In this document: positions 22,043 to 41,817 of the stretch, in pieces
Layout: each line of letters begins with the position of its first letter
Numbering within the stretch: position 1 is the first letter of the stretch
Source of the DNA: an uncultured Mycoplasmatota bacterium
GTDB taxonomy: Bacteria > Bacillota_I > Bacilli_A > RF39 > UBA660
Assembly: GCA_946639185.1 (NCBI GenBank)
Contig: CAMPBR010000002.1
Location: forward strand, 1,097 to 65,096
DNA: 64,000 nt
Direction: 5' to 3'
Position numbers and translations under genes: made by a program
The notes under the pieces: generated by a model
Databases searched by the model: none
What the model was told of the DNA's origin: nothing
Seen by the model: the letters and a program-made list of their open reading frames with translations, nothing else

Positions 22043-22906
22043 ATGCAAACATATGAAAGAAAAAGTCATAAATTAGGTAAAATAATTAGTGCTTCAGTAA
22101 TGGGTGTTAGTTTTATATGTATTATTGTTTTTTCTGTATTATTATACTTGGATAATAGTAAGAAACCGTTAATTAAGTATCCATTATATGAATTGTCTAC
22201 TAGGGATTGGACTAGTGGTAATGTTGTTATTAAAGTTACTAATGATTTAAAAAATGTCAATCCTAAAATAGAAGCATATTCATTTGATGGTGGGAAAAAC
22301 TTTCAAGAAAGCAATGAGTATGAAGCATTAGAAAATGGTAATTTTATTTTAGTAGTTAGAGATATAAATGGTAGACTTAGTAAATCAGTAATTGTAGCTA
22401 TTAGAAATATTGATAAAGATAGTCCACAAATAAATTTTGAAAATCCAACTACAGTTCAATTAAATAGTCCTTTTTCAGTTAGAACTGGTGTTGTTGTTAC
22501 TGAAAATGGTTCAGGACTTGCTAATAGTTATGTAGCTACTCCTAATACTATTGATACTAAAACAGAAGGTACTTATGAAGTTACTTATACAGCTGTTGAT
22601 AAAGTAGGTAATTACTCTGAAAAAACACGTACTATTATTGTTAAGGATGTAGTAGGTAGAACTTATTATAGATCTCGTTCTATATTTCAAGAAAGTTATC
22701 AATGTGAACCATATATGTGTAATTGTTTTAAACCAGCTACTGATATAGGTACATGTCCTACTGGATTTACTTTGAATGATGAAGCTAAATGCTGTAATAC
22801 TTGTTATAAAACTTGTAAGAAAACAGTATATGGAGAATGGAGTGAATGGAGTAAAGATAAAGTTACTCCAAGTGCCGTACTAGAAGTTGAAACTAAAATG
22901 GAATAA
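22043..22906 (+). CDS. Membrane-anchored protein with two Ig-like (DUF5011-like) domains and a Cys-rich C-terminal module
   Basis: N-terminal TM helix. The Ig-like signature TEGTYEVTYTAVDKVGNYSEKTRTIIV is present. The C-terminal 70 aa hold 11 Cys (CEPYMCNCF...CPTGF...CCNTCYKTCKK). Confidence 0.5.
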   Translation: MQTYERKSHKLGKIISASVMGVSFICIIVFSVLLYLDNSKKPLIKYPLYELSTRDWTSGNVVIKVTNDLKNVNPKIEAYSFDGGKNFQESNEYEALENGNFILVVRDINGRLSKSVIVAIRNIDKDSPQINFENPTTVQLNSPFSVRTGVVVTENGSGLANSYVATPNTIDTKTEGTYEVTYTAVDKVGNYSEKTRTIIVKDVVGRTYYRSRSIFQESYQCEPYMCNCFKPATDIGTCPTGFTLNDEAKCCNTCYKTCKKTVYGEWSEWSKDKVTPSAVLEVETKME

Positions 22907-24776: not shown

Positions 24777-25835
24777 ATGGATATGGGCTTATTTAATAAG
24801 ATTAAGAATATGTTTTCTAATAAACAAGAAGAAACTGAATTAATAAATGAAAATGTAGATTTAGAAGAAGCAAAAAAAGAAAATGTAAAAGCTGAAAAAA
24901 GAGAGGAAACAAAAGTAAAAGTATATGAAAAAGGTCTTACTAAAACAAGAAATACTTTTGTATCTAGTTTAATAAATTTAACTAATAAATATGCTCGTAT
25001 TAATGAAGAATATTTCGAAGAATTAGAAGAAATATTAATTATGGCAGATATTGGTGTTAATACGGTTATGGAATTTATGGATAGATTAAGAGATAGAGTT
25101 AATAAAGAGAAGATTACCGATCCTAATTTATTAAAAGAAGTTATAGTAGATGAATTATTTATTATATATGTTAATGATGATATTTTGGAAAGTAAGATTA
25201 AGTATGCTAGTAGCGGTCCAACTGTTTTGTTATTTGTTGGTGTTAATGGAGTAGGAAAAACTACTACTATTGCTAAACTTGCTAATAAAATGGTTGATTC
25301 TGGTAAGAAAGTATTATTAGTTGCTGGTGATACTTTTAGAGCAGGAGCTACTAAACAATTAGAAGAATGGGCAACTCGCGTAGGAGCATCTTTTGTAGGA
25401 AAAGAAGAAGGCGCTGATCCAGCAGCAGTTGTATTTGATGGAATAAAGAAAGCTAAAGAAGAGAATTATGATGTTGTATTTATAGATACAGCAGGTAGAC
25501 TTCAAAATAAAGTTAATCTTATGAAAGAATTAGAAAAGATTAATCGTGTTATAACTCGTGAAATACCTGATGCTCCTCATGAAACACTACTTGTAATCGA
25601 TGCTACTACTGGTCAAAATGGAATTAGCCAAGCTAAAAGTTTTAAAGAAATAACTAATATAACTGGTATAGTATTAACTAAGTTAGATGGTACAGCTAAA
25701 GGTGGTATAGTTTTAGCTATTAAAGATGAAGTAAATATTCCAGTTAAATATATAGGGTTTGGTGAAACTAAGGACGATTTACAAGCTTTTGATATAGAAG
25801 ATTATATATATGGATTATTTAAGGATATGATGTAG
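24777..25835 (+). CDS. ftsY: Signal recognition particle receptor FtsY
   Basis: The SRP-GTPase NG domain carries GVNGVGKTTTIAKLA, DTAGR and TKLDG. The N-terminal region is acidic. Confidence 0.9.
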   Translation: MDMGLFNKIKNMFSNKQEETELINENVDLEEAKKENVKAEKREETKVKVYEKGLTKTRNTFVSSLINLTNKYARINEEYFEELEEILIMADIGVNTVMEFMDRLRDRVNKEKITDPNLLKEVIVDELFIIYVNDDILESKIKYASSGPTVLLFVGVNGVGKTTTIAKLANKMVDSGKKVLLVAGDTFRAGATKQLEEWATRVGASFVGKEEGADPAAVVFDGIKKAKEENYDVVFIDTAGRLQNKVNLMKELEKINRVITREIPDAPHETLLVIDATTGQNGISQAKSFKEITNITGIVLTKLDGTAKGGIVLAIKDEVNIPVKYIGFGETKDDLQAFDIEDYIYGLFKDMM

Positions 25836-25836
25836 T

Positions 25837-26127
25837 ATGGATAAAACAATATATTATAATGTGTTATATGATTATTATGGATCATTATTAACTGATAAGC
25901 AAAAGAGTTATTATGAAGATTATTATTTTAATGATCTATCACTTTCTGAAATAGCTGAAAATAATAATGTTAGTAGAAATGCTGTTCATAATCAGTTAAA
26001 AATAGTAATAGAAAAATTAGAATTTTATGAAAATAATTTAAAACTCTATGAAAAATCAAAAAAAATTGGTACAATATTAAAGAGACTAGACGAAAAGACT
26101 AAAAAAGAAATAGAAGAATTAATATAG
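25837..26127 (+). CDS. ylxM: YlxM/UPF0122 putative SRP-associated DNA-binding protein
   Basis: LYDYYGSLLTDKQKSYYEDYYFNDLSLSEIAENNNVSRNAV aligns residue for residue with B. subtilis YlxM. Confidence 0.75.
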   Translation: MDKTIYYNVLYDYYGSLLTDKQKSYYEDYYFNDLSLSEIAENNNVSRNAVHNQLKIVIEKLEFYENNLKLYEKSKKIGTILKRLDEKTKKEIEELI

Positions 26128-26138
26128 GGGTTGATATT

Positions 26139-27893
26139 GTGTTTAAGAATATTCTTTATGTAGGGGATGTAGATGTTGAAATTGCTTTATTAGAAGATGC
26201 TTCTATTAATACTGATATTATGAATATGCCAATAGTATTAGTAGATAGTGAAAAAGCCATTCTAGCTGAAATTAAGGAAATGAATCCTAAAAGTGTTAAG
26301 GCTAAAATGTTAGGTGAGCTTGTTGATGGTAAATTTATTGGTGGTATTTTAAGAAAACCAAATCTAACAGCTACTATTCGTAGTTTAACACCTGATGAAT
26401 TAAGATATATTGTAGGTGAAGCTAATAAAGGAAATTTATTATTAGGAATAAGCCCATTTTATAATAAACAAAATGTGTATGTTGAATTAAATGAATTATT
26501 TAGTAAACATTTATGTGTATTTGGTAATACTGGATCAGGTAAAAGTTGCGGTGTATCTAGAATTATTCAAAATATATTTACAAACAAGGATTTTGTTCCA
26601 TATAAATCTAATTTTTTAATATTTGATTCATCAAGTGAGTACTATACAGCATTTTCTAGTATAAATAGTATTAATCCTAATTATAATTATAGATTTATTA
26701 CTACTAATAATAAGAGTCCATATCCACATGAAATACTTAGTATTCCATTATGGTTACTTAACGTAGAAGATATAAGCTTATTATTAAATGTTAATACATA
26801 TACACAAATATCTATTCTAGAAAAGACTTTAAAATTGGTTAAGATATTTGCTGAATCTAGTGATAAAGCTATTGAATATCAAAACCATTTAATAGCTAGT
26901 GCGATTATGACAATTCTTTATTCTAATCAGGGATCTGCTAGTAAAAGAGATGAAATCTTCTCATTATTTAATACATGTCAAACAGAAGCATTTAATTTAA
27001 ATGCTACTGTACAAGGTATTGGATATACAAGAAGATTACAAGAATGTTTCTTAATAGATAATTCAGATAATTTCTCAGAAAGAGTATTACTTACAGAATA
27101 TGTTAATAAATATATAAGACCTGATTTAAATCAATATGAACCAGAAAAAGTTGAAAAGTATGGTTTAGTTGAATTAGAAAAAGCTTTAAACTTTGCTTTA
27201 ATTAGTGAAGGTTGGTTAAGAAATAAAAATGTATATGCTGATGCTATTACATTAAAAGTTAAATTACATGAATTAGTAATTGGTCCTAATAGTAAGTTCT
27301 TTAATTATAGTGAATTTGTTACATTAGATCAATTTATTAGTAAATTAATAGTTAAGAATAATAAGAAATATCAAATTATTAATATTAACTTAGAAGATGT
27401 AGATGATAGTTTTGCTAAAGCTATTGTTAAAGTTATGTCTAGAATGGTATTTGATCTTTCTAAAAGAATTGAAAGAGGTAGTTTACCTTTTAATATAATT
27501 CTAGAAGAAGCACATAGATATGTACAAAGAGATTCAGATACTCAATTATTTGGATATAATATATTTGATAGAATTGCTAAAGAAGGACGTAAATATGGCG
27601 TTTTATTATCTTTAATAAGTCAAAGACCAGTTGAACTTTCTGATACAGTTATTTCTCAATGCTCTAACTTTATTATATTTAAGATGAGCCATCCTAGAGA
27701 TATTGAATATATTACTAAGATGATTCCAAATATAACAGATGATACAATTGAAAAACAAAAAGCTTTACAAGTTGGTAACTGTTTAGCCTTTGGTAGTGGA
27801 TTTAGAATACCTATTATAGTAAGACTTGATATGCCTAATCCAATGCCTCAAAGTAACAGCTGTGATGTTGTAGAGAAGTGGACAAGTAGATAG
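26139..27893 (+). CDS. HerA/FtsK-superfamily (DUF87-like) P-loop ATPase, orphan. GTG start.
   Basis: Walker A VFGNTGSGKSCGV, Walker B NIILEEAHRYV and the sensor motif LISQRP are present. The N-terminal ~120 aa suggest a HAS-barrel-like domain. The gene has its own terminator. No NurA-like partner is adjacent. Confidence 0.6.
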   Translation: MFKNILYVGDVDVEIALLEDASINTDIMNMPIVLVDSEKAILAEIKEMNPKSVKAKMLGELVDGKFIGGILRKPNLTATIRSLTPDELRYIVGEANKGNLLLGISPFYNKQNVYVELNELFSKHLCVFGNTGSGKSCGVSRIIQNIFTNKDFVPYKSNFLIFDSSSEYYTAFSSINSINPNYNYRFITTNNKSPYPHEILSIPLWLLNVEDISLLLNVNTYTQISILEKTLKLVKIFAESSDKAIEYQNHLIASAIMTILYSNQGSASKRDEIFSLFNTCQTEAFNLNATVQGIGYTRRLQECFLIDNSDNFSERVLLTEYVNKYIRPDLNQYEPEKVEKYGLVELEKALNFALISEGWLRNKNVYADAITLKVKLHELVIGPNSKFFNYSEFVTLDQFISKLIVKNNKKYQIININLEDVDDSFAKAIVKVMSRMVFDLSKRIERGSLPFNIILEEAHRYVQRDSDTQLFGYNIFDRIAKEGRKYGVLLSLISQRPVELSDTVISQCSNFIIFKMSHPRDIEYITKMIPNITDDTIEKQKALQVGNCLAFGSGFRIPIIVRLDMPNPMPQSNSCDVVEKWTSR

Positions 27894-27914
27894 AGACTTA
27901 GGTCTCTTTTTTTG
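27892..27914 (+). terminator. Rho-independent terminator after the HerA-like gene
   Basis: Stem agagac/gtctct around loop ttag, then a T7 run. Confidence 0.65.
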
Positions 27915-27920
27915 TGGGAT

Positions 27921-27948
27921 AAAAAAATGCTTGACTTTTTTTTATTTT
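27921..27948 (+). promoter_or_regulatory. Near-consensus sigma-A promoter with extended -10, driving the secreted-protein cluster
   Basis: TTGACT, a 16-nt spacer, then TGtTATAAT. Confidence 0.6.
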
Positions 27949-27991
27949 GTGTTATAATATCAGCTAAACTTATTTATGGGGGGTTTGTGGT

Positions 27992-29554
27992 ATGAAAAAA
28001 TGGGGGTCAAAACATACTAACAACAACGATAGAACTAAGTTATTAATTTATATGTTAAAACATAAAAATAGAAATATTTATGCAGCAAGTTTATTAGCAC
28101 TTGCTACTATATTAATGATTGCTCAAGCTAAGAAAGATAATATTGAAGATACGGATTTAAGTGATATAGCACTTGAGCAAGAAAGTACAATTGATATGAG
28201 TAATGAAATTATTGAAGAAATAGATAATGAATTACAACAAGAAATAACTCCAGATGATAATAGTGTTATCTATTATACAGATTGGAGTTATTTTCATATT
28301 AAACACATAGGCAATAAAAAAGTGGTAGAAAGTCACCACTATTCAGATTATATATATAATGAAGAAACTGGAAATTATGAAGCTACATGTTTAGAATGTG
28401 GACACGTTGATACTAAGAAACATGTAGAAGAAGTTAGTATAGAAAGTTCAGTAGAAAATTCTAAACCTGTTTCTACAAGTAATAAAGATAATAATAAAGT
28501 TAATGATTCTAGTAATACTAGTAGTACTACTACAACAAATAATTCTAATAATAATGTAGCAGAAGAAAGTAATACTAATCAAGAAACTAATAATGGAAAT
28601 AATAACAACAATAATAATACAGAAGGAACTAAACCAACACCAAAACCTGTACATCAACATACATGGTCAGGTTGGTCATACTATAATGATAGTCAAGAAG
28701 TAAGTAGTTGTTCTGATTGTAATGAAAAGAAATATCAATCACATAGTTATGGTTCTTATTCATATAATCAAGCTAGTGGTTTAGAAGAAGCTACCTGTTC
28801 ATCTTGTGGACACGTTATAACAAGATCACATACACATCAATTTAGTGGATGGGTTGCTGATAATGATTCAACACACTCAAGAACATGTACTGTAAATGGT
28901 GATAATACTAAAGAAACAGTTAGTCACAATTATTCATTAATTGGACAAGATGGTGTTAATGATACATATAGATGTTCTGATTGTGGACATACAATGGCAC
29001 TTCCACATTCACATACATTTAATGGAACTAATACTAGAACTATAGGTAGCGCTTCTGAATGTTACCAAACATATCAAGTATGTTCTGGATGTGGTAATGA
29101 AGTAGTTATTGAGACAAAAACATCTCATAATTATGGGGCACCAACAACATCAGAAAGTGGTGGAATGATATATGAAGTATATACATGTTCAGATTGTGGA
29201 TATTCATATCAAGAAGAACATGGACATACAGCTTCATATGTTGAACGAGTAGAAGATGTTGGTAGTGATGATGTATGTTATCGTGTATATCTACATTGTG
29301 ATTATCCTGGATGTAGTCAACACGAAGATATTCTTCAAGGAGAATATGGACATAATTATCAACATGGTAGTGAAACAGTATTTGATACAACTATCGAATT
29401 CGATGAATGTACTCGTTGTCATAAAGTGATAAATGAAGTTGAAACAATAAATACAGGAGCTAAAGTAAATTTCTTTAATATTTTCGATTATCTATATGAT
29501 GACAAATTATTAGCTAAAGAAGATAAAGAGAAAACTTTAAGTTTAAAAATATAA
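27992..29554 (+). CDS. Secreted or membrane-anchored protein built from about eight tandem Cys/His-rich modules, possibly extracellular zinc-ribbon-like
   Basis: N-terminal signal/anchor (IYAASLLALATILMIAQA). The recurring unit is H-x-[YFW]...C-x-x-C-G-[HYN]-x(5-8)-H-x-H, for example ATCLECGHVDTKKH, SCSDCNEKKYQSH, ATCSSCGHVITRSHTH, YRCSDCGHTMALPHSH, VCSGCGNEV and YTCSDCGYSYQEEHGH. An Asn/Thr-rich linker is also present. Confidence 0.55.
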   Translation: MKKWGSKHTNNNDRTKLLIYMLKHKNRNIYAASLLALATILMIAQAKKDNIEDTDLSDIALEQESTIDMSNEIIEEIDNELQQEITPDDNSVIYYTDWSYFHIKHIGNKKVVESHHYSDYIYNEETGNYEATCLECGHVDTKKHVEEVSIESSVENSKPVSTSNKDNNKVNDSSNTSSTTTTNNSNNNVAEESNTNQETNNGNNNNNNNTEGTKPTPKPVHQHTWSGWSYYNDSQEVSSCSDCNEKKYQSHSYGSYSYNQASGLEEATCSSCGHVITRSHTHQFSGWVADNDSTHSRTCTVNGDNTKETVSHNYSLIGQDGVNDTYRCSDCGHTMALPHSHTFNGTNTRTIGSASECYQTYQVCSGCGNEVVIETKTSHNYGAPTTSESGGMIYEVYTCSDCGYSYQEEHGHTASYVERVEDVGSDDVCYRVYLHCDYPGCSQHEDILQGEYGHNYQHGSETVFDTTIEFDECTRCHKVINEVETINTGAKVNFFNIFDYLYDDKLLAKEDKEKTLSLKI

Positions 29555-29574
29555 AAAAGAAAGGATGAAAGGGT

Positions 29575-30351
29575 ATGAAAAATAAAAAGTGGTATCAAAA
29601 AATAAGTAACTGGATTTTTATACTACTAGTAATGATATTATTACCAATATTGCTTATTAATATTTATATCATGATACAAGCAAATAATGATAATGATAAA
29701 GTACCTAGTGTATTTGGTTATAAACCATTTATTGTATTATCTGGTTCGATGGAAACTAAAATACATGTTGGTGACTTAATCATTACTAAAGAAATAGATC
29801 CAACTACTTTGGTAGTAAATGACGTTATAGCATTTAGAGACCAAGAAAATACCGTTACTACACATAGAATTATAGATATTGTAGAAAAAGATGGTGTTAC
29901 TTATTTTATAACTAAAGGTGATAATAATAATTCACAAGACCAAAATCTTGTAGAATATAAAGATGTTGAAGGTTTATATATCACACGTATTCCTAGTGTT
30001 GGTAATATGTTAAATGAAATTTCTAAACCAACAACAGTAGTAATTATTGGATTAGGATTAACAGTAGTATTTATACTAGCTTTCCAAATATCTAATAATA
30101 AATATAAAGATCAAGAAAAACAAGAATTTTTAGAATATAAGAAGATGAAAGAAAAGGAACAAAAAGAAAAAGAAGCAAAAGAGTCTTTAGAAGCAAAACA
30201 AACAAAAACTTCTAAAAAAACTACTGCTAAGAAATCTACTTCCAAAAAAGAAGAAAGTACTCCTAAGAAACAATCTTCTAAGACTACTAGCAAAAAGACT
30301 AGTACTAAAAGTACACAGTCTAAAAAGGTAGTTTCTAAAAAAACTAAATAA
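29575..30351 (+). CDS. sipW: SipW-type (archaeal/ER-type) signal peptidase I with a C-terminal Lys/Thr/Ser-rich tail of about 90 aa
   Basis: One TM helix, then the catalytic region LSGSMETKIHVGDLIITKEI ... VTTHRIIDI ... ITKGDNN. Tail: KKTTAKKSTSKKEESTPKKQSSKTTSKKTSTKSTQSKKVVSKKTK. Confidence 0.75.
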   Translation: MKNKKWYQKISNWIFILLVMILLPILLINIYIMIQANNDNDKVPSVFGYKPFIVLSGSMETKIHVGDLIITKEIDPTTLVVNDVIAFRDQENTVTTHRIIDIVEKDGVTYFITKGDNNNSQDQNLVEYKDVEGLYITRIPSVGNMLNEISKPTTVVIIGLGLTVVFILAFQISNNKYKDQEKQEFLEYKKMKEKEQKEKEAKESLEAKQTKTSKKTTAKKSTSKKEESTPKKQSSKTTSKKTSTKSTQSKKVVSKKTK

Positions 30352-30482
30352 TAATTTAACTACTCTGGTATTTGAACTACCTCAAGTAAATTTGGGTAAA
30401 CATTCTTAGGAGTGTTTACATAGATAGGATATATCTTTGGATATACTCCTAAGAAAGTTTTATTATGGGGGAGGTGAATCAA

Positions 30483-31067
30483 ATGACTAAAAAATTATCA
30501 ATCTTAGCTGCATTAGTATTAGCTGTTTTAGTAACTGCTAACTCTGTAGGTGGTACATACGCTAAGTATACTAGTACTTTTACTGGTGCTACATCATCTG
30601 CAAGAGTTGCTAAATGGGCTTTCGAAATTAATGATACTGCTGTAACAAATTCATTTACTTTCAATTTATTTGAAACTGTAAATGATACTAATGTTGCAAC
30701 TGGTACTAACGAAAATATAATTGCACCTGGTACATCTGGTTCATTTGCTATCAAATTAGCTAATAAGTCAGAAGTTAATGCAGTTTATACAGTAGATTAT
30801 ACAGTTACAAATGCAGCTAATATCCCAGTAGAATTTAGTATCGATGGTACTACTTGGACTACTGATTTAGCTGATGTAACTACACCAGTAGCTATCAATA
30901 TGAATGCTGATACTACTATCACAGTTCAATGGAGATGGGCATTCGTTGGTACTGGTAGTGCTAACTATGCTGATACTCAAACTGATGCTACTGATACTAC
31001 TTTAGGTATTGCTGGTACTGGTACTATTTCAGTTCAAGCTAATATTACTGCTACTCAAGTTGACTAA
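30483..31067 (+). CDS. TasA/camelysin-like secreted protein with a SipW-cognate signal peptide
   Basis: Strong SD (gggggaggtgaatcaaATG). The signal peptide ends in VGGTYAKYTSTFTG, comparable to the TasA GGTWAAFND motif. The C-terminal TITVQWRWAF resembles the TasA LQFSFEATQWNG strand. 194 aa. Confidence 0.55.
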   Translation: MTKKLSILAALVLAVLVTANSVGGTYAKYTSTFTGATSSARVAKWAFEINDTAVTNSFTFNLFETVNDTNVATGTNENIIAPGTSGSFAIKLANKSEVNAVYTVDYTVTNAANIPVEFSIDGTTWTTDLADVTTPVAINMNADTTITVQWRWAFVGTGSANYADTQTDATDTTLGIAGTGTISVQANITATQVD

Positions 31068-31165
31068 TAATAGATAGAAAGTTATTTTTATAACTTTCTG
31101 CTAAGTTCATTATTAGTAATGAATTTAGTAGAGCGTTATTAAATGCTAGAGAGGGGGAATTTATT

Positions 31166-33970
31166 ATGAATAATAATATATCTGATAATAAAAGAAATAA
31201 AAAAGTTATTATTAAGATAATTATGCTTATTGTGATTATCCTTCTTTTAGTATGTAGTTGTACTGCTACTAGATATTTTGGTAGAATTGGAAAACGTAAT
31301 TTGGAATTAAATAAAGATATTAATAATAAACCAGAACTTCCAATTATAAATAATGAAAACTTAAAATTTGATTTAGATAGTGATACTAATATTACTATTA
31401 GCGGTGATAAATATAAAATTAGTTATACAACTAAAGGTGTTAAATTAAAAAATCTAACATGTTCTACATCTGATTCTAAAATCGCTACATGTTATGTAGA
31501 AGATGGATATATAGTAGTTGTACCTAAAGGAAATGGTACAGTTGATATTATATTAGAAGGTATTACTAATGATACTAGATATCAATCTACTACTACAATA
31601 ACTGTTGGTAATAGTGAAGCATCTAGTAGTAATAATGATAGTAATGATGGTAACAATAGTAGTAATGGTAATAGTGGTACTAATACTAATACTCAAGTAG
31701 ATCCTGGTACTACTAGTGGTGGTAATACTGATGTTACTCCTGAAGTTGGAGATATAGTTGTAGATAGTGATTCTAGATTAAAATCTTTAACTGTTGGATC
31801 TTATTTATTAAAACCAAGTTTTAATTCTGAAGTTTATGATTATGTAGTTACTGTTGATAGCAGTGTTAACAAAGTTAATATTAAAGCTAAAACTAATTCA
31901 AATAGAGCTAAAATATTATCTGGTACTGGTAATATTAGATTAAATAGTAATTCGACTATAGTTTCTATTATTGTAGAAGCAGAAGATGGAACTACTAGTA
32001 CATATACAGTTAAGATTAATAAAAAAGATAATCCTACTGTTTTATCAAATGATGCGACTTTAAAGAAATTAGAAGCTACTAATTATACTTTAAATCCAAC
32101 TTTTGAAAGTAATACATTTAATTATGTTTTAGAAGTTGGATATAATGTAAATAGTTTAGATTTAACAGCTATAGCTAACTCTGAATATGCTAATGTAACT
32201 ATTAAAAATAATTTTAATTTTGTTACTGGAAATAATATAGTAGAAATAGTAGTAGTTGCAGAAGATGGAACTACTAATACTTATAAAATAACTGTTAATA
32301 AACAAGCTAAAGAAGAAGCATCTAAAGCTTCACTTAAAGATATTAAAATTAATGGTAATTCAATTAATAACTTTGATTCTAATGTTTTAACATATAATGT
32401 TACAGTAGATTCAAATACTAATAGTTTAAATATTGAAGGTATACCAGAATATGATAATACTAGTGTTGTAGTAACTGGTAATACTAATCTTAATCCAGGT
32501 ACTAATACAGTAGCTATTCTAGTTACTGGTAGTGATGGAAGTAGTAAAACTTATAATATTATAGTTAATAAAGAGAAAGATAGTACTAATACATTAACTA
32601 GTTTAGGAATTAAGAATTATTTATTAAATGAAGTATTTAGTGAAAATAAATTTAATTATTCTGTTAATGTAGGAGCTGATGTTACTGACTTAGAAGTTTT
32701 ATATACTAAGAAAGATTCTAGAGAAACAGTAGAAATTACTGGTAATACTAATATTGGTGTTAGTGGAAGTGAAATTTTAGTTAAAGTAATAGCTGAAGAT
32801 GGTATTTATAATACTTATAAGATTACAGTAATTAAAGCTATAGATCTTTCTCAATATTATATTTATTCAATAGAAAATTATACTCTAGGATATAATCCTA
32901 GTAATGATAATTCTAAAACTATTATTATTAATAATAATATTTTAGAAGGAAGTGTAGTAGTAGAAAAAACAAATTCATCTATTACATTAACTGATAGTAA
33001 TAATTCTAAAGTTGTTTTAACTTATAATGATTTAGATATTACTTATATTGAAGATACAACTCTTTCTTCATTAGCATTTAAAGTTAATTATACTTCTAGT
33101 GGTGTTAAGACTATTAATGTTACAGGTAGTATAGGAAATAATATTATTAAGACATATGATATTACTTTAAATATTACTAAACAATTTAATGTAGTATTAG
33201 ATGCTAATAATGGATTCTTTACTGAATTATCTGATAAGTATGAATTTATTGTTGATGATGGTGAAATGTTTGATTTAAGTATCTATAATACAGCATATAA
33301 ATTAGTTGATGATACTAGTTGTTTAACTTATAAGTTTATTGGTTATGATATAGATAAAACTAGTAATACTCCATTATATGAAGTTGATAGTTTATCTAGT
33401 ATTAGTATAACTAGTGATATAACTTTATATGCGGTATATAGTACTACAGATACTACTACATATGTATCTACTAATAATAGATTATATTTAACTAATATTG
33501 ATTTATTTGTACTTGAAGATGGTACTAAGAATTTAATATATCCTGGTACTAATGGATCATATGTTATGAGAATTAAAAATACAACTAATGATAAAGTAGT
33601 AATTGATTCAATTAAATTAGAAGAAAATAATATATGTATTGATAGTAATACTTGTGTCAATATGGGATATAAAGTTAGATATACAGAAAATAATAGTAAT
33701 ATTTATTCTTATGCGATAGGCTCTAGTAATAATTATAGAGTTATCTATAAAGAAGGAACTAGTGTAGATGCTAATTTTAATAATTTAGAATTAAATCCAG
33801 GAGAAGAGACAGAAATAACTTTATTCTGGATGTGGGCTTATTCAGAGTCTAGTAGTCAAGATAATATTGATACTAGTATTGGTAATTATATGAATTCTCA
33901 TCCAAACCTAACTTATGATATAACAGTATCATTTACATATTCTAAAGAAAGTAGTCAGTGTGGTAACTAA
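31166..33970 (+). CDS. Giant SipW-cognate surface protein: N-terminal anchor, five cadherin-like repeats and a C-terminal TasA-like domain
   Basis: Five ~90-aa repeats each end in ...AEDGTT(S/N)TYK(I/V)T(V/I)NK. The C-terminal region (NGSYVMRIKNTTNDKV ... ETEITLFWMWAY) parallels ORF 30483..31067 (TSGSFAIKLANKSEVN ... TITVQWRWAF). Confidence 0.6.
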   Translation: MNNNISDNKRNKKVIIKIIMLIVIILLLVCSCTATRYFGRIGKRNLELNKDINNKPELPIINNENLKFDLDSDTNITISGDKYKISYTTKGVKLKNLTCSTSDSKIATCYVEDGYIVVVPKGNGTVDIILEGITNDTRYQSTTTITVGNSEASSSNNDSNDGNNSSNGNSGTNTNTQVDPGTTSGGNTDVTPEVGDIVVDSDSRLKSLTVGSYLLKPSFNSEVYDYVVTVDSSVNKVNIKAKTNSNRAKILSGTGNIRLNSNSTIVSIIVEAEDGTTSTYTVKINKKDNPTVLSNDATLKKLEATNYTLNPTFESNTFNYVLEVGYNVNSLDLTAIANSEYANVTIKNNFNFVTGNNIVEIVVVAEDGTTNTYKITVNKQAKEEASKASLKDIKINGNSINNFDSNVLTYNVTVDSNTNSLNIEGIPEYDNTSVVVTGNTNLNPGTNTVAILVTGSDGSSKTYNIIVNKEKDSTNTLTSLGIKNYLLNEVFSENKFNYSVNVGADVTDLEVLYTKKDSRETVEITGNTNIGVSGSEILVKVIAEDGIYNTYKITVIKAIDLSQYYIYSIENYTLGYNPSNDNSKTIIINNNILEGSVVVEKTNSSITLTDSNNSKVVLTYNDLDITYIEDTTLSSLAFKVNYTSSGVKTINVTGSIGNNIIKTYDITLNITKQFNVVLDANNGFFTELSDKYEFIVDDGEMFDLSIYNTAYKLVDDTSCLTYKFIGYDIDKTSNTPLYEVDSLSSISITSDITLYAVYSTTDTTTYVSTNNRLYLTNIDLFVLEDGTKNLIYPGTNGSYVMRIKNTTNDKVVIDSIKLEENNICIDSNTCVNMGYKVRYTENNSNIYSYAIGSSNNYRVIYKEGTSVDANFNNLELNPGEETEITLFWMWAYSESSSQDNIDTSIGNYMNSHPNLTYDITVSFTYSKESSQCGN
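31770..32830 (+). repeat. Five tandem ~270-bp coding repeats (cadherin-like beta-sandwich modules) inside ORF 31166..33970
   Basis: DNA-level recurrences such as gcagaagatggaactactagtacatatacagttaagattaataaa, gcagaagatggaactactaatacttataaaataactgttaataaa and gctgaagatggtatttataatacttataagattacagtaattaaa. Confidence 0.55.
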
Positions 33971-34458
33971 TGAAAACTATTAGAAGAATAATAAAGTGGT
34001 TAGTATTAATTATATTATTACTTATTATGACATTTAATATGTATAGTTATATTAATGTTAAAGTTTTAGGTAATAAATTAAATACAGTAGGTGGATATTC
34101 TATTTTACAAGTTGTATCTCCATCTATGGAACCAACTATTCATGTTGGCAGTTTAGTATTAATTAATACAAAAGAAAGTAATTATAAAGTAAATGATATA
34201 GTTACTTATGAAGATGAGAATGGGTTGTTGGTTACCCATAGAATTATTGATATAGATGATGATTTTATGGTAACTAAGGGTGATAATAATGATAGTGATG
34301 ATGGTTTAATTAGTTTAGATGTTATTAAAGGAAAACTAATTTATCAATCACATATAGTAGGAGAAATTATTACAATTCTACAAAATAAAATAGTATTAAT
34401 ATTAATATTTATAATAGGAATACTTGGATGTGTAGAATTAGATAATAAAAAAGAATAA
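33970..34458 (+). CDS. Second SipW-type signal peptidase I (162 aa, no Lys-rich tail)
   Basis: VVSPSMEPTIHVGSLVLINTKE ... LVTHRIIDI ... VTKGDNN is paralogous to 29575..30351. The start overlaps the upstream stop (ATGA). Confidence 0.72.
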   Translation: MKTIRRIIKWLVLIILLLIMTFNMYSYINVKVLGNKLNTVGGYSILQVVSPSMEPTIHVGSLVLINTKESNYKVNDIVTYEDENGLLVTHRIIDIDDDFMVTKGDNNDSDDGLISLDVIKGKLIYQSHIVGEIITILQNKIVLILIFIIGILGCVELDNKKE

Positions 34459-34474
34459 AGAAAGGAAGATTAAT

Positions 34475-35026
34475 ATGAATATGTTACTGCATAGTAAGAC
34501 ATTTAAGAAAAACTTACTTAAATGGATAATTATATATTTTGGTGTAATTGCACTGTTTACTAGTGTAGTCACATATTCAAAATATATATCTAGTCAAGTA
34601 GCAGGATCGACTGCTAGTATAGCTAAGTTCCAAGTAGATATAATAAAAACTAAGATATGTTCTACGTTGGATACAGAACGTTGTAATTACTATGATACAG
34701 ATGGTAATTTACTTAATGAAGAATATAAGTTTAAACCATATGATTCTTTAGATTTTTACTTCAATGTTGATACACAAGAATTAGAGGTTTCTACTAAACT
34801 TGTTCTTACTATTCATGTAGATTCATCTAAAGTAAAAGTTATTTCTATAAATGGAGAAGAACAAGAAGAAGATAGATCTTTAATAACACTAATAGATCCT
34901 AAGATGGATATGGGTACTATTAAAGAATATATAATTAGAGTAGAGCCTAAGGGAACTTTGTATGAAAGTGAAGTTAATATGACTGAAGCAATTAAAATAG
35001 ATTATTCAGCTGTACAAATAGATTAA
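34475..35026 (+). CDS. Small putative SipW-cognate secreted protein (183 aa)
   Basis: A TM/signal segment is followed by TYSKYISSQVAGSTASIAKF, which resembles the TYAKYTSTFTGATSSARVAKW of the TasA-like protein. Confidence 0.45.
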   Translation: MNMLLHSKTFKKNLLKWIIIYFGVIALFTSVVTYSKYISSQVAGSTASIAKFQVDIIKTKICSTLDTERCNYYDTDGNLLNEEYKFKPYDSLDFYFNVDTQELEVSTKLVLTIHVDSSKVKVISINGEEQEEDRSLITLIDPKMDMGTIKEYIIRVEPKGTLYESEVNMTEAIKIDYSAVQID

Positions 35027-35042
35027 TAAGAAAGGTGGGATT

Positions 35043-36617
35043 TTGGTGAAAACTAAATTAAGAATTTATGTAGTTATATTACTTATTTGCTTTTTTAATA
35101 TTTCATGTTTTTCTGTTTTTCCAGAATCTCATGCTAAATATATTAAGGAAGAAGTAGATAAACTTACTTATGATGCTACTTTATATAAACTAACTGGTAA
35201 TTATAAAACTATAGGTATTAATAGAAATAGATCTACATCAACAACTGGTTATTTCTATATCTTATTTGATAGAAATACACTTATGTATGATAATGACACT
35301 ACTGATAATTATACGATTACAGTAGGATCTAATAATACTAGTACTTCTAGTATTTGTAAAATTGATTCTATTATATCTAGTGGTACTAATAGTAAAGTAA
35401 GTGATTATATATATGATGTTACATATGACCATAATGATAGTAATACAATTACTATAAATGTTATATGTGATATGGATGAAGAATACTATTTTAGTAATCC
35501 AAGTGATTATATAAATGTATCTTTATCAGTATCAGAAAATATCGATGGTGAAAAGACATTTACTTATATTAATACATCATATGTATTAACAACATATCAA
35601 GAGTATTATGAAGTATATGGATCTTTATACAATAAAGCTTTATATTTTATAAGAAATACATATGCTGATGATAGTTCATTAAGAGAAGTTGCTATGAGTT
35701 ATTTCAATTCAGTATTTTTAACTGATAGTGATATAGAAACTAAAACATTAGATGGATTTAATTATGATAGTTCTACTGGTACTTTCAGTTTAAGTAGTGA
35801 TTTCTTAAAATATGCTAGAACATATTATAGTACTACTAATGGTAATGGAAAATATTATTTCTATTTTGATAGTAGTAGTACTGATAGTAGTGCATTAAAT
35901 AGTTTATTTGAATATTATTTAAGTAAATATACTAATTTTAATGAAAGTGATTATAATGAATTAATAACATATGTTAATACTAAACCTAATGGTATTTTAG
36001 ATGTATTAACTAGTGGTTTAACTGGATTCTCTGTAGTAGATGATACAGCTTATAATCATAAGATATTATCATTTAAGGATTCTATTATTAATATAGCTAA
36101 CTATGTTAATAATCCAACTCCTGTTTCAGTAATAGCTATTAATAATGATAAAGTTTTTAATATGAAAGCTTATTTAAGAAATTATATTAATAATTATGAA
36201 GGTTTATCAGATACTGTTAAATCTGGATTAATAAATAATATAATTAGTGATGCTAATTATCAATTAAGTTTATTAGTGACAGCTAATGCTACTAATAATG
36301 GTACTCAATCAACAAACGATAGTTTCTCTGAATTATTCTTTGATACATTTGGTGAAGCTGGTCAAGAAGAAAAGATTATGGCAAATGTTTATGCTGATGG
36401 AGTTGAAGCTATTACGTATGTTAAGTTCTATAACTTAGAAGAAGGTAATACTGTTATATATACTTCACCAACTGAAATAACTGAAACTGATTATAATAGT
36501 TTTGTAGATGAAGTACATGAAGATGTATATGGTGAACCATTAGATACAGATTTACCATTACCGGATGCAACTTTAGAAAATGGATTCTATACATATGATT
36601 ATGTTATTGAAGAGTAA
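35043..36617 (+). CDS. Putative SipW-cognate secreted protein (524 aa), Ser/Thr/Asn/Tyr-rich. TTG or GTG start.
   Basis: SD aaaggtgggattTTG. The signal segment is followed by PESHAKYIKEE. A terminator follows. Confidence 0.45.
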   Translation: MVKTKLRIYVVILLICFFNISCFSVFPESHAKYIKEEVDKLTYDATLYKLTGNYKTIGINRNRSTSTTGYFYILFDRNTLMYDNDTTDNYTITVGSNNTSTSSICKIDSIISSGTNSKVSDYIYDVTYDHNDSNTITINVICDMDEEYYFSNPSDYINVSLSVSENIDGEKTFTYINTSYVLTTYQEYYEVYGSLYNKALYFIRNTYADDSSLREVAMSYFNSVFLTDSDIETKTLDGFNYDSSTGTFSLSSDFLKYARTYYSTTNGNGKYYFYFDSSSTDSSALNSLFEYYLSKYTNFNESDYNELITYVNTKPNGILDVLTSGLTGFSVVDDTAYNHKILSFKDSIINIANYVNNPTPVSVIAINNDKVFNMKAYLRNYINNYEGLSDTVKSGLINNIISDANYQLSLLVTANATNNGTQSTNDSFSELFFDTFGEAGQEEKIMANVYADGVEAITYVKFYNLEEGNTVIYTSPTEITETDYNSFVDEVHEDVYGEPLDTDLPLPDATLENGFYTYDYVIEE

Positions 36618-36640
36618 GTAAAACTTACTCTTTTTTTATT
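36612..36640 (+). terminator. Rho-independent terminator
   Basis: Stem gagtaag/cttactc followed by a T7 run. Confidence 0.65.
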
Positions 36641-36689
36641 TTCTTTTTTTGATTAGTTTGATATAATTTTTTTAGATTAGAGATGATAC

Positions 36690-37352
36690 ATGATGGGAAA
36701 AGAAAAATATTCAACATCTTTTTTGGAATTTTTAGAACCAAATAAGAATAAAGCTATAGCTGTTATTTCTAAGTGTCAATATGCTATTAATATAGATAGT
36801 GGTACTCATGAAGGAATGCTTGCTGATTTAATATCAAATATTAGACCTAGATTTTCTAAAAATAATTTTTCTATAGGGGATTGTATAATAATACTTGCAG
36901 ATAATGGTTATCCAGGTATTATATATATAGAACTTCCAAAAAGTCAAACGATAAGTTTAGAACAATATAATTGTTTAAGTGAAATACTTTATTATATTAA
37001 GAATTATAATCGTATATGTGCTTGGGAAAGACCTGGTTATGAATATGAAATAAATGTTAAGAATGGTAATAATGATATTGATATTAAGAAGAATTATGCT
37101 AATGATATAGATGGTTTATTAAAAATATTAAATAATTATGTTATTAATGATAATACTTTTTATAAAGAAAGAATTATAGGTAGAAAGTTTGATAATAAAG
37201 AAGAATATGTTGATAAAATAATTGAGTCTATGGATAGTGATACTAATAATTTAAAATATAAGGGTTATAGTAGTTTACCTATACTTATATTATTTTCTAC
37301 ATTTACTTCAATTACTGTTTTAATATTAGCTATATTTCTAATAATAGACTAG
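36690..37352 (+). CDS. Hypothetical protein (220 aa) with a C-terminal TM anchor
   Basis: The C-terminal hydrophobic helix is LPILILFSTFTSITVLILAIFLII. No motif. Confidence 0.4.
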   Translation: MMGKEKYSTSFLEFLEPNKNKAIAVISKCQYAINIDSGTHEGMLADLISNIRPRFSKNNFSIGDCIIILADNGYPGIIYIELPKSQTISLEQYNCLSEILYYIKNYNRICAWERPGYEYEINVKNGNNDIDIKKNYANDIDGLLKILNNYVINDNTFYKERIIGRKFDNKEEYVDKIIESMDSDTNNLKYKGYSSLPILILFSTFTSITVLILAIFLIID

Positions 37353-41785: not shown

Positions 41786-41817
41786 AAATCACCATAATAA
41801 AAATGGTGATTTTTTTT
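41786..41817 (+). terminator. Rho-independent terminator after priA
   Basis: Stem aaatcaccat/atggtgattt followed by a T8 run. Confidence 0.65.

Follow-up and report, generated by a model that had tools for sequence, protein, structure and literature searches.

Introduction

Among the described systems closest to the locus studied here is the tapA-sipW-tasA operon of Bacillus subtilis, whose first gene encodes TapA (YqxM), a protein that acts by strand complementation and shows little conservation even across Bacillus (PMC10151520). It contains a single Ig-like domain, exerts its effect through a short terminal strand at its N-terminus and carries Cys residues that form dispensable disulfides (PMC10151520). 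A SipW-type peptidase also lies beside genes for secreted matrix or pilus subunits in sipW-bsaA of Clostridium perfringens and in sipW-calY of the Bacillus cereus group (PMC7395162, PMC10151520).

In Gram-positive surface and cellulosomal proteins, fn3, Big, cadherin-like and X modules serve as spacers or stalks between catalytic, cohesin and dockerin domains; they are small, independently folding units that occur in tandem and part functional domains, and they are beta-sandwiches of 80-100 residues devoid of metal-ligand motifs. The zinc ribbon is built from two beta-hairpin knuckles that together supply four ligands, classically as C-x-x-C twice, and Glu and Asp are uncommon ligands in structural zinc ribbons.

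The window (the whole stretch of DNA that was analysed, 64,000 nucleotides from an uncultured Mycoplasmatota bacterium) contains a gene that had been proposed to encode a secreted protein composed of a previously unrecognised tandem Cys/His module. Here we describe a computational analysis of this gene, its product and its neighbours.

Results

A Cys/His-repeat gene opens an operon with two SipW-type peptidases

The features of the locus are collected in Table 1. The near-consensus promoter of the original prediction was confirmed, in that the site has 11 of 12 consensus matches plus the extended −10 TG and is the highest-scoring site across 27600-31300. Because promoter-like sites as a class do not exceed their frequency in shuffled sequence, only the quality and position of this site count. 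An intrinsic terminator sets the HerA-like gene upstream apart from the operon, and we rejected the HerA-like ATPase as a member of the system on account of this terminator and because the gene is missing upstream in L002, L003 and nearly all of the genome loci. Horizontal acquisition of the island was likewise rejected, there being no shift in GC or skew. An identical protein is present in public assemblies (P0001, cluster n=6), and four homologues (P0002-P0005) with 56-63% identity have the N-terminus in common, which supports the assigned start codon. Short DNA repeats within the gene are confined to the low-complexity Asn/Ser/Thr linker; no DNA-level tandem repeat was found elsewhere in the gene, and the Cys/His units are therefore old and diverged.

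Table 1. Positions, within the window, of the Cys/His-repeat gene, its control elements, the segments of its product and the genes downstream.
Feature	Position	Strand	Details
Intrinsic terminator of upstream HerA-like gene	27892..27907	+	6-bp G+C-containing stem, 4-nt loop, T7 run
Sigma-70-type promoter, whole	27931..27958	+	TTGACT, 16-nt spacer, TG-n-TATAAT
Promoter TTGACT element	27931-27936	+	
Promoter TGtTATAAT element	27950-27958	+	
Ribosome-binding site GGGGGG	27978..27983	+	8 nt 5′ of ATG; by reading the sequence
Cys/His-repeat protein ORF	27992..29554	+	520 aa; 19 Cys, 27 His
Putative export/anchor signal	27992..28129	+	basic n-region aa 1-28 (+8/−1); hydrophobic segment aa 29-46 (ending LMIAQA, followed by KK)
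Acidic segment, aa 47-92	28130..28267	+	charge +2/−16; pLDDT <50
First unit pair, 5′ of linker	28274..28426	+	HMM copy 1, aa 95-114 (degenerate, no Cys); HMM copy 2, aa 115-145 (C133/C136)
Asn/Ser/Thr-rich disordered linker, aa 146-218	28427..28645	+	pLDDT 24-30
Eight contiguous ~30-aa Cys/His units, aa 221-485	28652..29446	+	HMM domains, E 1e-8 to 1e-14
Array unit 1	28658-28747	+	HMM copy 3, aa 223-252
Array unit 2	28742-28834	+	HMM copy 4, aa 251-281
Array unit 3	28835-28924	+	HMM copy 5, aa 282-311
Array unit 4	28925-29011	+	HMM copy 6, aa 312-340
Array unit 5	29012-29125	+	HMM copy 7, aa 341-376
Array unit 6	29126-29224	+	HMM copy 8, aa 379-411
Array unit 7	29225-29350	+	HMM copy 9, aa 412-448
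Array unit 8	29351-29446	+	HMM copy 10, aa 454-485
C-terminal tail, aa 486-520	29447..29551	+	ends ...LLAKEDKEKTLSLKI
SipW-type signal peptidase I, copy 1	29575..30351	+	TIGR02228 92.3 bits, cut-off 51.85
200-aa secreted protein	30465..31067	+	VGGTYAKYTS after signal segment; candidate polymer subunit
934-aa cadherin-like protein	31166..33970	+	PF12733 85.8 bits, 4 stretches
SipW-type signal peptidase I, copy 2	33970..34458	+	TIGR02228 77.4 bits, cut-off 51.85
183-aa secreted protein	34475..35026	+	VVTYSKYISS after signal segment
524-aa secreted protein	35043..36617	+	SHAKYIKE after signal segment; last conserved operon gene

The next gene passes the cut-off of TIGR02228, the model for signal peptidase I of the SipW/archaeal type, and the repeat gene thus lies directly upstream of sipW, as had been stated. 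Neither SipW copy reaches the cut-off of 190 for NF046067, the Bacillus SipW equivalog (101 bits for copy 1 and 68 for copy 2), and copy 1 has a long Lys/Ser/Thr-rich C-terminal tail. The 934-aa protein, whose position is conserved in related loci, combines an N-terminal hydrophobic segment with four cadherin-like beta-sandwich domains. A [Y/H]-[A/S]-K-Y motif follows the signal segment of the 200-aa, 183-aa and 524-aa proteins, and T-R-Y-F is a looser version of it in the cadherin-like protein.

Searching a genome collection with the 200-aa neighbour yielded 60 related loci; a scan with the full-length family alignment of the repeat protein found no relative in this collection, which holds species representatives, apparently without the window's own genome. 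The order first gene, SipW, 200-aa, cadherin-like, second SipW, 183-aa is seen in L002, L003 and the 60 genome loci, among which the 200-aa protein always follows SipW and the 183-aa protein is kept after the second SipW in most. Homologues of the 524-aa protein occupy the same position in L002, L015, L037 and L059. The first-gene proteins of L002 and L003 are merely 27-32% identical to that of the window. The gene directly 5′ of SipW is usually Cys/His-rich in related genomes as well: it matches the unit profile at E<1e-5 in 19 of the 60 loci and at E<2e-3 in about six more, and about 11 further loci have a Cys/His-rich gene with several CxxC at this place. In roughly one-quarter of the loci the corresponding gene is short and not Cys-rich, and the operon can therefore exist without such a protein. 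A C-terminal acidic stretch followed by [K/E]-x-L-[T/S/V]-L-x-basic, a motif defined post hoc from the same data, ends 24 of 36 related first-gene proteins as compared with 53 of 633 control ORFs.

Like TapA, the Cys/His-repeat protein is the product of the first operon gene, directly before genes for a SipW-type peptidase and a secreted subunit. Both proteins are exported, have a long basic n-region, contain Cys and bear a negatively charged C-terminal part, and both are poorly conserved among relatives. Unlike TapA, the Cys/His-repeat protein is predicted to be an array of hairpin repeats and not Ig-like, its conserved short strand is C-terminal, and it has no sequence similarity to TapA, of which neither a model nor a PDB chain matched it. 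The one resemblance of the 200-aa protein to TasA is a G-G-T-[Y/W]-A motif behind its signal segment. The 200-aa protein had no Pfam or PDB sequence match, either alone or as a 20-sequence profile, and an assignment to TasA/camelysin (Peptidase_M73) was rejected; a "TasA-like" label for it would reflect context and motif only. Because no similarity of this protein to TasA or camelysin is detectable, the TapA analogy is one of gene order alone, and the parallel with tapA-sipW-tasA is a common gene position rather than family membership. The operon also departs from sipW-bsaA and sipW-calY in having two SipW copies, a cadherin-like giant and subunits that lack similarity to TasA or BsaA. No first gene of the Cys/His-repeat kind appears in the described sipW operons, to judge from the papers found.

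The protein is predicted to be exported and tethered

Residues 29-46 form the sole hydrophobic segment of the protein, and AlphaFold2 places a helix at aa 27-49. The charge changes from +8/−1 before this segment to +2/−16 over the 46 residues after it, an asymmetry that predicts an N-in/C-out orientation and therefore places the repeats outside the cell. The A-Q-A motif at the end of the segment would allow cleavage. At the same position, a lipobox-like motif is present in 13 of the 29 full-length counterparts that related operons encode. These features agree with the export that had been claimed and with the interpretation of the N-terminal hydrophobic segment as a signal, and the protein is read as exported and as probably membrane-tethered.

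Of the 74 residues at aa 145-218, which take in the linker, 22 are Asn, 12 Ser and 11 Thr. The repeats had been placed behind a poly-Asn/Thr linker, which is correct for the eight-unit array but not for the pair at aa 95-145, which is located before the linker and was modelled at a pLDDT of 50-60.

The repeat unit combines a C-x-x-C knuckle with putatively interchangeable ligand candidates

An HMM built from the units detected 10 copies, nine good and one degenerate, rather than the eight or so originally counted. The unit is about 30 aa long and reads H-x-[YFW]...[H/E/D or upstream C]-x3-C-x-x-C-G...H. The stricter form proposed before, H-x-[YFW]-x(8-15)-C-x-x-C-G-[HYN]-x(5-8)-H-x-H, fits only two units, and a relaxed H-x-[YFW]...C-x-x-C fits seven. 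The repetition itself withstood statistical self-alignment: one double unit scored 17.7 bits against the rest of the array, whereas 500 composition-matched shuffles gave a maximum of 4.0 and a mean of −4.3. Pairwise E-values between units were as low as 1e-10 (unit 1b with unit 2b). Two unit subtypes alternate along the array, giving a larger period of about 60 aa. Unit 3a has a single Cys and unit 1a has none; the idea that His102 and His105 replace the Cys knuckle in degenerate unit 1a was dropped, because the automatic alignment did not support it and confidence in the model is low at this point.

Each unit of the window protein offers three or four ligand-capable residues as candidate ligands. 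Column statistics over 1035 units showed His at position 1 in 77% (every case in which the position was aligned), Cys in 100% and 93% at the two knuckle columns, and H/E/D at position −4 in 74%. In 1772 units defined by regular expression, an upstream Cys was present in 43% of those lacking H/E/D at −4 versus 14% of those having it (odds ratio 0.22, p 2e-42), a trade-off that is the pattern expected from interchangeable metal ligands. Of the set of two Cys and two or three His with zinc-ribbon or treble-clef-like geometry that had been predicted, the C-x-x-C knuckle in a small all-beta unit is supported, but the ligand set of each unit is more likely His + [His/Glu/Asp or upstream Cys] + C-x-x-C. 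A His at −4 lies on the same strand as the first Cys and may be poorly placed for binding the same ion.

The predicted fold resembles a zinc ribbon

In the AlphaFold2 model of the full protein, the array units are all-beta hairpins with pLDDT values of 80-90. The double unit aa 221-281, modelled separately, reached a pLDDT of 94.3 and a pTM of 0.67; DSSP assigned strands to residues 9-10, 15-20 and 26-30, then 37-39, 44-49 and 55-59, with Cys 20/23 and 49/52 in turns. Each modelled unit would accordingly have three antiparallel strands in one sheet and its knuckle in the turn from the second to the third, as in a zinc ribbon, and a zinc-ribbon-like small all-beta unit with a C-x-x-C knuckle is thereby upheld at the level of prediction. 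The closest solved structures in a fold search with the double unit were XPA, ELOF1 and Rpb9, which are classical zinc ribbons or fingers. Local superposition on XPA gave an rmsd of 1.4-2.1 Å across 32-37 residues, and local low-rmsd matches were also obtained to small phage zinc-ribbon proteins. All of the fold matches, those to solved zinc ribbons included, were statistically insignificant (best E 0.4 in the PDB and 0.026 in BFVD), so that homology to zinc ribbons is not established. A fold search with the full-length model returned beta-propeller and hairpin-rich noise (TM ~0.06) and was set aside as meaningless for a beads-on-a-string model.

The Cys/His unit is like XPA, ELOF1 and Rpb9 in its length of about 30 residues, its three antiparallel strands, the C-x-x-C-G knuckle between the last two and the distance of about 16-18 residues from the N-terminal ligand element to the knuckle. 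It differs from the classical zinc ribbon in its first knuckle, where His (or H-x-H) would be joined by His/Glu/Asp or a lone upstream Cys, and in that the units are extracellular and follow one another head to tail, up to about 50 in an array.

The module lacks a curated family and is widespread

Neither Pfam-A nor NCBIfam gave a match above threshold for the window protein or for the strongest repeat-bearing proteins, and the view that the repeats belong to no known family, intracellular zinc fingers included, was thus sustained. The best Pfam-A matches were DUF7576 (14.1 bits, cut-off 27) and Zn_Ribbon_TF (11.7 bits, cut-off 29), and all sub-threshold sequence matches of the window protein were to zinc-binding families. 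Newer precomputed Pfam assignments for two strong module-bearing proteins contained "faint" matches only (DUF8106, Rv1322 and DUF7836). The best curated match, NF047912, fell below its 37-bit cut-off at 33.0 bits (E 4.1e-8), and scored 21.5 bits with a canonical repeat protein. In this putative zinc-binding ECs_2282 family, profile positions 4-42 align with aa 239-281 and share C-x-x-C, 25 residues and C-x-x-C; the family differs in being a single small 60-aa protein of E. coli O157 without a repeat. Our searches found no literature on ECs2282, no tblastn match of two window units to phage records, and no publication that describes zinc-ribbon or CxxC repeats outside the cell in connection with dockerin or surface proteins.

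A word-index search with the 61-aa double-unit profile, a query too short for this method, produced nine candidates and one match. In an exhaustive HMMER search, the same profile matched the representatives of 3984 clusters at E<=1e-3, a number that fell to 899 at E<=1e-10 and to 79 at E<=1e-30. The maximum was 52 matched stretches in one protein of 6446 aa. Most module-bearing proteins are large and exported, with Dockerin_1, Cohesin, LRR_5, SLH or fn3 domains, and 100 of the top 141 have an N-terminal hydrophobic segment. Long arrays adjoin dockerin, cohesin, protease and lectin domains, the usual place of a spacer or stalk. "Previously unrecognised" is therefore apt insofar as no curated family or paper was found, but a great many surface proteins of gut Firmicutes contain the module, and the assertion that it is unusual on the outside of a Gram-positive cell does not hold, the 899 clusters making it neither specific to this protein nor rare. 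The Cys/His unit has one-third of the size of the beta-sandwich spacers and seems to be dependent on its Cys/His site.

Discussion

We estimate at about 55% the probability that the protein is an exported, metal-stapled stalk that anchors or nucleates the secreted polymer of its operon. In this model, the gene product of a spore-forming, low-GC (26%) Firmicute is exported to the cell surface. The basic region and hydrophobic segment would carry the protein across the membrane and probably keep it tethered, a role that a lipoprotein signal may take over in many counterparts from related genomes. Outside the cell, a flexible acidic and Asn-rich tether would lead to a string of nine or ten ~30-residue mini-domains, each with three predicted beta strands and a C-x-x-C knuckle between the second and third. 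The conserved His would open the unit, with a fourth ligand-capable residue on the strand leading into the knuckle (His/Glu/Asp at −4) or, as a Cys, further upstream, and each unit could chelate one Zn2+ or similar ion in the manner of a zinc ribbon. We consider metal binding by the units likely. The beads might jointly form a stiff, disulfide-independent stalk fit for an anaerobe, which seems to us probable, though slightly less so than metal binding. More tentatively, the stalk protein would anchor or nucleate a polymer or surface layer made of the secreted proteins of the operon, and the C-terminal K-x-L-x-L-basic strand after its acidic stretch would be the likely contact with these products, much as TapA works through a short terminal strand.

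If the units do bind metal, they constitute a compact extracellular zinc-ribbon repeat, which occurs in no fewer than about 900 protein clusters from Firmicutes of the gut and rumen and is passed over by current domain libraries; with a curated model, long "hypothetical" stretches in cellulosomal and other surface proteins would gain an annotation. As a small, disulfide-free and metal-switchable spacer, the unit might also be of use in protein engineering. The operon, conserved across many uncultured gut Bacillota, combines two ER/archaeal-type signal peptidases with four secreted proteins that have no known relatives, which suggests that it builds an undescribed surface structure (fibre, sheath or matrix), and the Cys/His protein offers the easiest way into this putative structure. 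That both propositions are true together, namely an uncurated and very widespread family of extracellular metal-stapled mini-domains and a membrane-tethered stalk that anchors an undescribed two-SipW polymer with TasA-unrelated subunits, is a possibility that we put forward with reserve; anaerobic gut Firmicutes would then employ such units in place of disulfide-stabilised or large beta-sandwich spacers.

One could envision instead that the protein is a free-standing surface stalk or adhesin for ligands on the host, on food particles or on neighbouring cells, and is merely co-transcribed with the operon without a role in assembly. The module is found in hundreds of unrelated surface proteins outside any SipW context, together with dockerin, cohesin, LRR or protease domains; some genomes have the operon without a Cys/His first gene; and the first-gene protein evolves faster than its neighbours (32% identity in L002 versus 57% for SipW1), which is typical of exposed, ligand-facing proteins. 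Yet the gene keeps its same-strand place directly 5′ of SipW across divergent operons even where its sequence is barely alignable, and the sole element kept in nearly all versions is the short C-terminal strand and not a globular binding domain. We think that this alternative is rather unlikely.

Another alternative, improbable in our view, is that the Cys pairs form extracellular disulfides or redox-active C-x-x-C centres and that the conserved His is structural. C-x-x-C is also a motif of thiol-disulfide oxidoreductases, Cys residues of extracellular proteins are often oxidised, and TapA itself has disulfides (PMC10151520), but the C-x-x-C of the predicted unit lies in a beta-hairpin knuckle, whereas that of the thioredoxin fold lies at the N-terminus of a helix. 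Most units have two Cys only, and a disulfide between them, within one knuckle, would contribute little to stability. The His at the start of the unit is almost invariant, H/E/D at −4 trades off with an upstream Cys, which disulfides do not explain, and the host bacteria are anaerobes of the gut.

Still less probable is a metal-buffering or scavenging surface protein whose many Cys/His sites would bind zinc or another metal in order to import or detoxify it. A molecule would have nine or ten potential sites, His accounts for 5.2% of its residues, and some homologues (e.g. P0002 and P0006) have His-rich stretches near the N-terminus. On the other hand, no gene for a metal transporter, regulator or chaperone was found in or beside the operon in the window and the 60 related loci, the sites lie within mini-domains that are predicted with confidence to be folded, as structural sites do, and the module serves chiefly as a spacer in enzymes and scaffold proteins. 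Finally, a cytoplasmic zinc-finger protein, such as an anti-sigma-like regulator, is hardly credible: although the sub-threshold sequence matches are all to intracellular zinc-finger families, none reaches its family threshold, the charge distribution points to N-in/C-out, counterparts carry lipoprotein signals, and the module is found alongside dockerin, cohesin and SLH domains.

The Cys/His repeat and its gene

The original prediction was that positions 27992 to 29554 encode about eight tandem Cys/His repeats. That observation stands, and the interpretation given to it finds partial support. The open reading frame is intact, and the repeat itself is confirmed: the double unit at residues 221-280 scored 17.7 bits against the remainder of the array, whereas 500 shuffles of the same residues gave a mean of −4.3 and none above 4.0, and unit-pair comparisons reached E-values down to 1e-10. 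The number of copies and the strict regular expression did not stand, as an HMM iterated across six family members found 10 units (domain E-values of 1e-8 to 1e-14 for nine, the remaining one being degenerate), and the expression fits only two units, or seven when relaxed. The ~30-residue unit consists of His, any residue, an aromatic residue (often as G-x-W), 8-17 residues, C-x-x-C, usually Gly, 5-8 residues and His. Two flavours alternate, giving the array a second period of ~60 residues. Because no DNA-level repeat of the units is present in the gene, they are taken to be old duplications.

The start codon is confirmed by the N-terminus (MKK...KHTNN..R.KLL) common to the protein and four homologues of 56-63% identity (P0002-P0005). 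The near-consensus promoter proposed earlier is the top match of its region, and the gene next downstream does encode a SipW-type peptidase (table below). Two small opposite-strand ORFs (28448-28660 and 29106-29390), for which no support was found, were rejected as chance products of AT-rich sequence.

Features of the window, of the Cys/His protein (residues, aa) and of its repeat unit (positions)
Feature	Coordinates	Strand	Remarks
ftsY	24777-25835
ylxM	25837-26127
HerA/DUF87-like ATPase	26139-27893	+	upstream of Cys/His gene
Hairpin terminator	27892-27907		closes HerA/DUF87-like gene
Promoter	27931-27958		TTGACT, 16 nt, TG-t-TATAAT; 11/12 matches
Ribosome-binding site	8 nt upstream of ATG		GGGGGG
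Cys/His gene	27992-29554	+	520 aa
SipW copy 1	29575-30351	+	unusual Lys/Ser/Thr-rich tail, ~85 residues past second hydrophobic segment
200-aa protein	30465-31067
934-aa protein	31166-33970		four cadherin-like domains
SipW copy 2	33970-34458		without the tail of copy 1
183-aa protein	34475-35026
524-aa protein	35043-36617
220-aa protein	36690-37352	+	no family match; sole hydrophobic segment at extreme C-terminus (tail-anchored)
ffh	37413-38720
N-terminal region	aa 1-28		strongly basic, +8/-1
Sole hydrophobic segment	aa 29-46		ends LMIAQA, then KK
Acidic segment	aa 47-92		+2/-16
First unit pair	aa 95-145		HMM
Asn/Ser/Thr-rich linker	aa 145-218		predicted disorder
Eight contiguous units	aa 221-485		HMM
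Tail	aa 486-520		ends LLAKEDKEKTLSLKI
Unit conservation	position 1		His 77%; remainder alignment gaps
Unit conservation	position 15 (-4 from first Cys)		His 46%, Glu 22%, Asp 6%
Unit conservation	position 19		Cys 100%
Unit conservation	position 22		Cys 93%
Unit conservation	position 23		Gly 73%
Candidate ligands, unit 1b	H115 or H116, E130, C133, C136
Candidate ligands, unit 2a	H223, E236, C240, C243
Candidate ligands, unit 2b	H251, E265, C269, C272
Candidate ligands, unit 3a	H282, H295, C299		one ligand short
Candidate ligands, unit 3b	H312, D324, C328, C331
Candidate ligands, unit 4a	H341, C357, C364, C367
Candidate ligands, unit 4b	H379, E395, C399, C402
Candidate ligands, unit 5a	H412, C429, C436, C441
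Candidate ligands, unit 5b	H454, E469, C473, C476

The SipW operon and its conservation

In Firmicutes, ylxM and ffh normally adjoin within ftsY-ylxM-ffh. Here ~11 kb (26139-37352) lie between them, comprising the HerA-like ATPase gene and an eight-gene SipW cluster, with no GC or skew discontinuity across the SipW island; contig L001 shows the same arrangement. The ATPase (584 aa, GTG start) has no visible partner gene, scores 175 bits against anti-phage HerA models (cut-off 850), is parted from the operon by the terminator and is not kept beside the operon in other genomes. The 220-aa protein gene, which follows the operon in the window, is absent from the related contig L002, which makes it a doubtful member of the operon. 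Directly past their signal segments, the 200-aa, 183-aa and 524-aa proteins carry GGTYAKYTS, VVTYSKYIS and SHAKYIKE, respectively, and the cadherin-like protein carries a looser version, TATRYFG; the motif may serve the two SipW peptidases for recognition or cleavage, or it may act as a donor strand.

On L002 and L003, distant homologues (27-32% identity to the Cys/His protein) lead the same run of genes, with the order unchanged. The 200-aa family matched nothing in Pfam or the PDB, also when searched as a profile. Used to scan a single genome from each species, it returned 60 loci, nearly all in uncultured gut MAGs whose labels read Bacilli, Tenericutes, Firmicutes or Clostridia, and in most of them the order is SipW, 200-aa, cadherin-like, SipW, 183-aa. 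Immediately before the first SipW, and reading in the same direction, lies a gene that the unit profile picks up in 19 loci at E<1e-5 and in about six further loci at E<2e-3. In about 11 other loci this upstream gene encodes a protein of 430-980 aa, of which 2.4-6.7% is Cys and which contains 2-20 CxxC, in about a quarter it is a short Cys-poor ORF, and in several the contig end cuts the region. The most Cys-rich proteins without a profile match (up to 6.7% Cys and 20 CxxC, among L008-L067; for example L044:6217-9150 and L027:5255-7168) may be more divergent variants of the module.

Besides the repeats, the sole element that these first-gene proteins share lies at the extreme C-terminus, where an acidic stretch runs into [K/E]-x-L-[T/S/V]-L and then into basic residues; a motif defined post hoc from the same data finds it in 24 of 36 proteins, as against 53 of 633 control ORFs. 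One alternative is that the Cys/His protein is a free-standing adhesin or stalk merely co-transcribed with the operon; set between the loci led by a Cys-poor ORF and those sharing gene order and C-terminus, it seems to us unlikely. The SipW operon led by the Cys/His gene is conserved, interesting and uncharacterised.

Spread and predicted fold of the module

The view that the module belongs to no known family holds for the libraries and literature searched. Pfam-A gave nothing near threshold, the PDB sequence search no match, and NCBIfam at best NF047912 ('ECs_2282 family putative zinc-binding protein') at 33 bits, below its cut-off of 37; the full-text literature search found no description of the repeat. 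A 63-position double-unit profile, run with HMMER on 1.84 billion cluster representatives, matched 3984 proteins with E-values of 1e-3 or lower, of which 899 also reach 1e-10 and 79 reach 1e-30, with up to 52 matched stretches in one protein; a typical sequence is ...GHTYGAWTSVDGTNHKRVCACGHEETAAHTWNDGVVTTPATHSATGVKTYTCTACGATKTETI... The top matches are large; of the 141 that begin with Met, 100 carry a hydrophobic segment for export at the N-terminus, and many contain dockerin, cohesin, papain-like protease, lectin-like, LRR_5, SLH or fn3 domains. Their source names run from 'hypothetical' to 'dockerin type I repeat-containing', 'cohesin domain-containing' and 'leucine-rich repeat'. No family was found on the repeats of the strongest of them, and newer precomputed Pfam matches on two were only faint (DUF8106, Rv1322, DUF7836, Rubredoxin). 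Among Clostridia-type organisms the module is common as an extracellular repeat and usually occupies spacer-domain positions, so its supposed rarity on the exterior of Gram-positive cells was overstated; what is unusual is the absence of curation.

In an AlphaFold2 model of the full protein (six-sequence alignment), the N-terminus, linker and tail have low confidence, and residues 221-487 reach pLDDT 80-90 with short beta-strands throughout. The double-unit model (25 aligned units; pLDDT 94.3, pTM 0.67) places three strands in each unit and C-x-x-C in the turn between strands 2 and 3, an arrangement that matches a zinc ribbon. Foldseek found no significant PDB match; its low-rmsd local matches, none significant, were zinc fingers or ribbons of XPA (1.4-2.1 A across 32-37 residues), ELOF1 and Rpb9, and a viral structure library returned small phage zinc-ribbon-type proteins. 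The repeat fold is well supported, and the modelled units would work like a zinc ribbon, although membership of that class falls short of proven. The unit is an uncurated kind of zinc-ribbon-like mini-domain, common in nature.

Candidate metal ligands

Column statistics (see table) were drawn from 1035 units of the protein's family and 147 representative proteins. In a second set of 1772 units, defined by a simple pattern independent of the HMM, H, E or D occupies -4 in 46% (background 18.7%), and an extra Cys lies 5-12 residues upstream in 43% of units without such a residue versus 14% with it (odds ratio 0.22, p 2e-42). Cys, His and acidic residues thus trade places, a pattern of metal ligands and not of disulfide partners, and we infer that the units probably bind metal. 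Use of the nearly invariant C-x-x-C pairs as disulfides or redox centres is accordingly improbable, and metal scavenging is slightly more improbable still.

Location and proposed role of the Cys/His protein

The charge distribution predicts an N-in/C-out topology, which would place everything past residue 46 outside the cell. The A-Q-A ending the hydrophobic segment is a plausible signal-peptidase site; alternatively, the segment could be retained as an anchor. Lipobox-like motifs (such as L-T-G-C) past the hydrophobic segment in 13 of 29 full-length first-gene proteins support a surface-tethered location. Export is well supported, as first claimed, and an intracellular zinc finger is very improbable. 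The expected Asn/Thr linker is present, but the repeats do not all lie behind it, since the first pair precedes it.

We propose that the protein is exported and kept at the membrane, that its flexible segments, acidic and rich in Asn, together with the rod of metal-stapled beads beyond them, would hold the C-terminal strand away from the cell, and that this strand would bind one of the operon's secreted proteins. We put a spacer or stalk role at roughly 60%. The gene's position matches that of tapA, first in tapA-sipW-tasA; TapA, which is poorly conserved even inside Bacillus, donates a terminal strand and thereby starts TasA filaments (PMC10151520). By this analogy the protein might be an anchor or nucleator, which we regard as tentative: the step is weak because Pfam and PDB sequence searches detected no similarity of the Cys/His or 200-aa protein to TapA or TasA.

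Other features of the window

The window encodes SpoIVA and SpoIID (7069-8544 and 41803-43083, both exceeding curated cut-offs), PBP1A, a PASTA kinase, PolC and DnaE, which indicates a walled, spore-forming, 26%-GC Firmicute. Many related operon-bearing MAGs are labelled 'Tenericutes' or 'Muribaculaceae', which look like loose or wrong binning labels. A VirD4-like coupling-protein fragment near the window start (1819-3099, +; CD1115 family, 174 bits, cut-off 250) may be a conjugative-element remnant. A gene flanked by those for RNase Y and RNase J (22043-22906, +) encodes a protein of 287 aa that contains a bacterial surface Ig-like domain (PF16403), and it is kept at the same place on L001.
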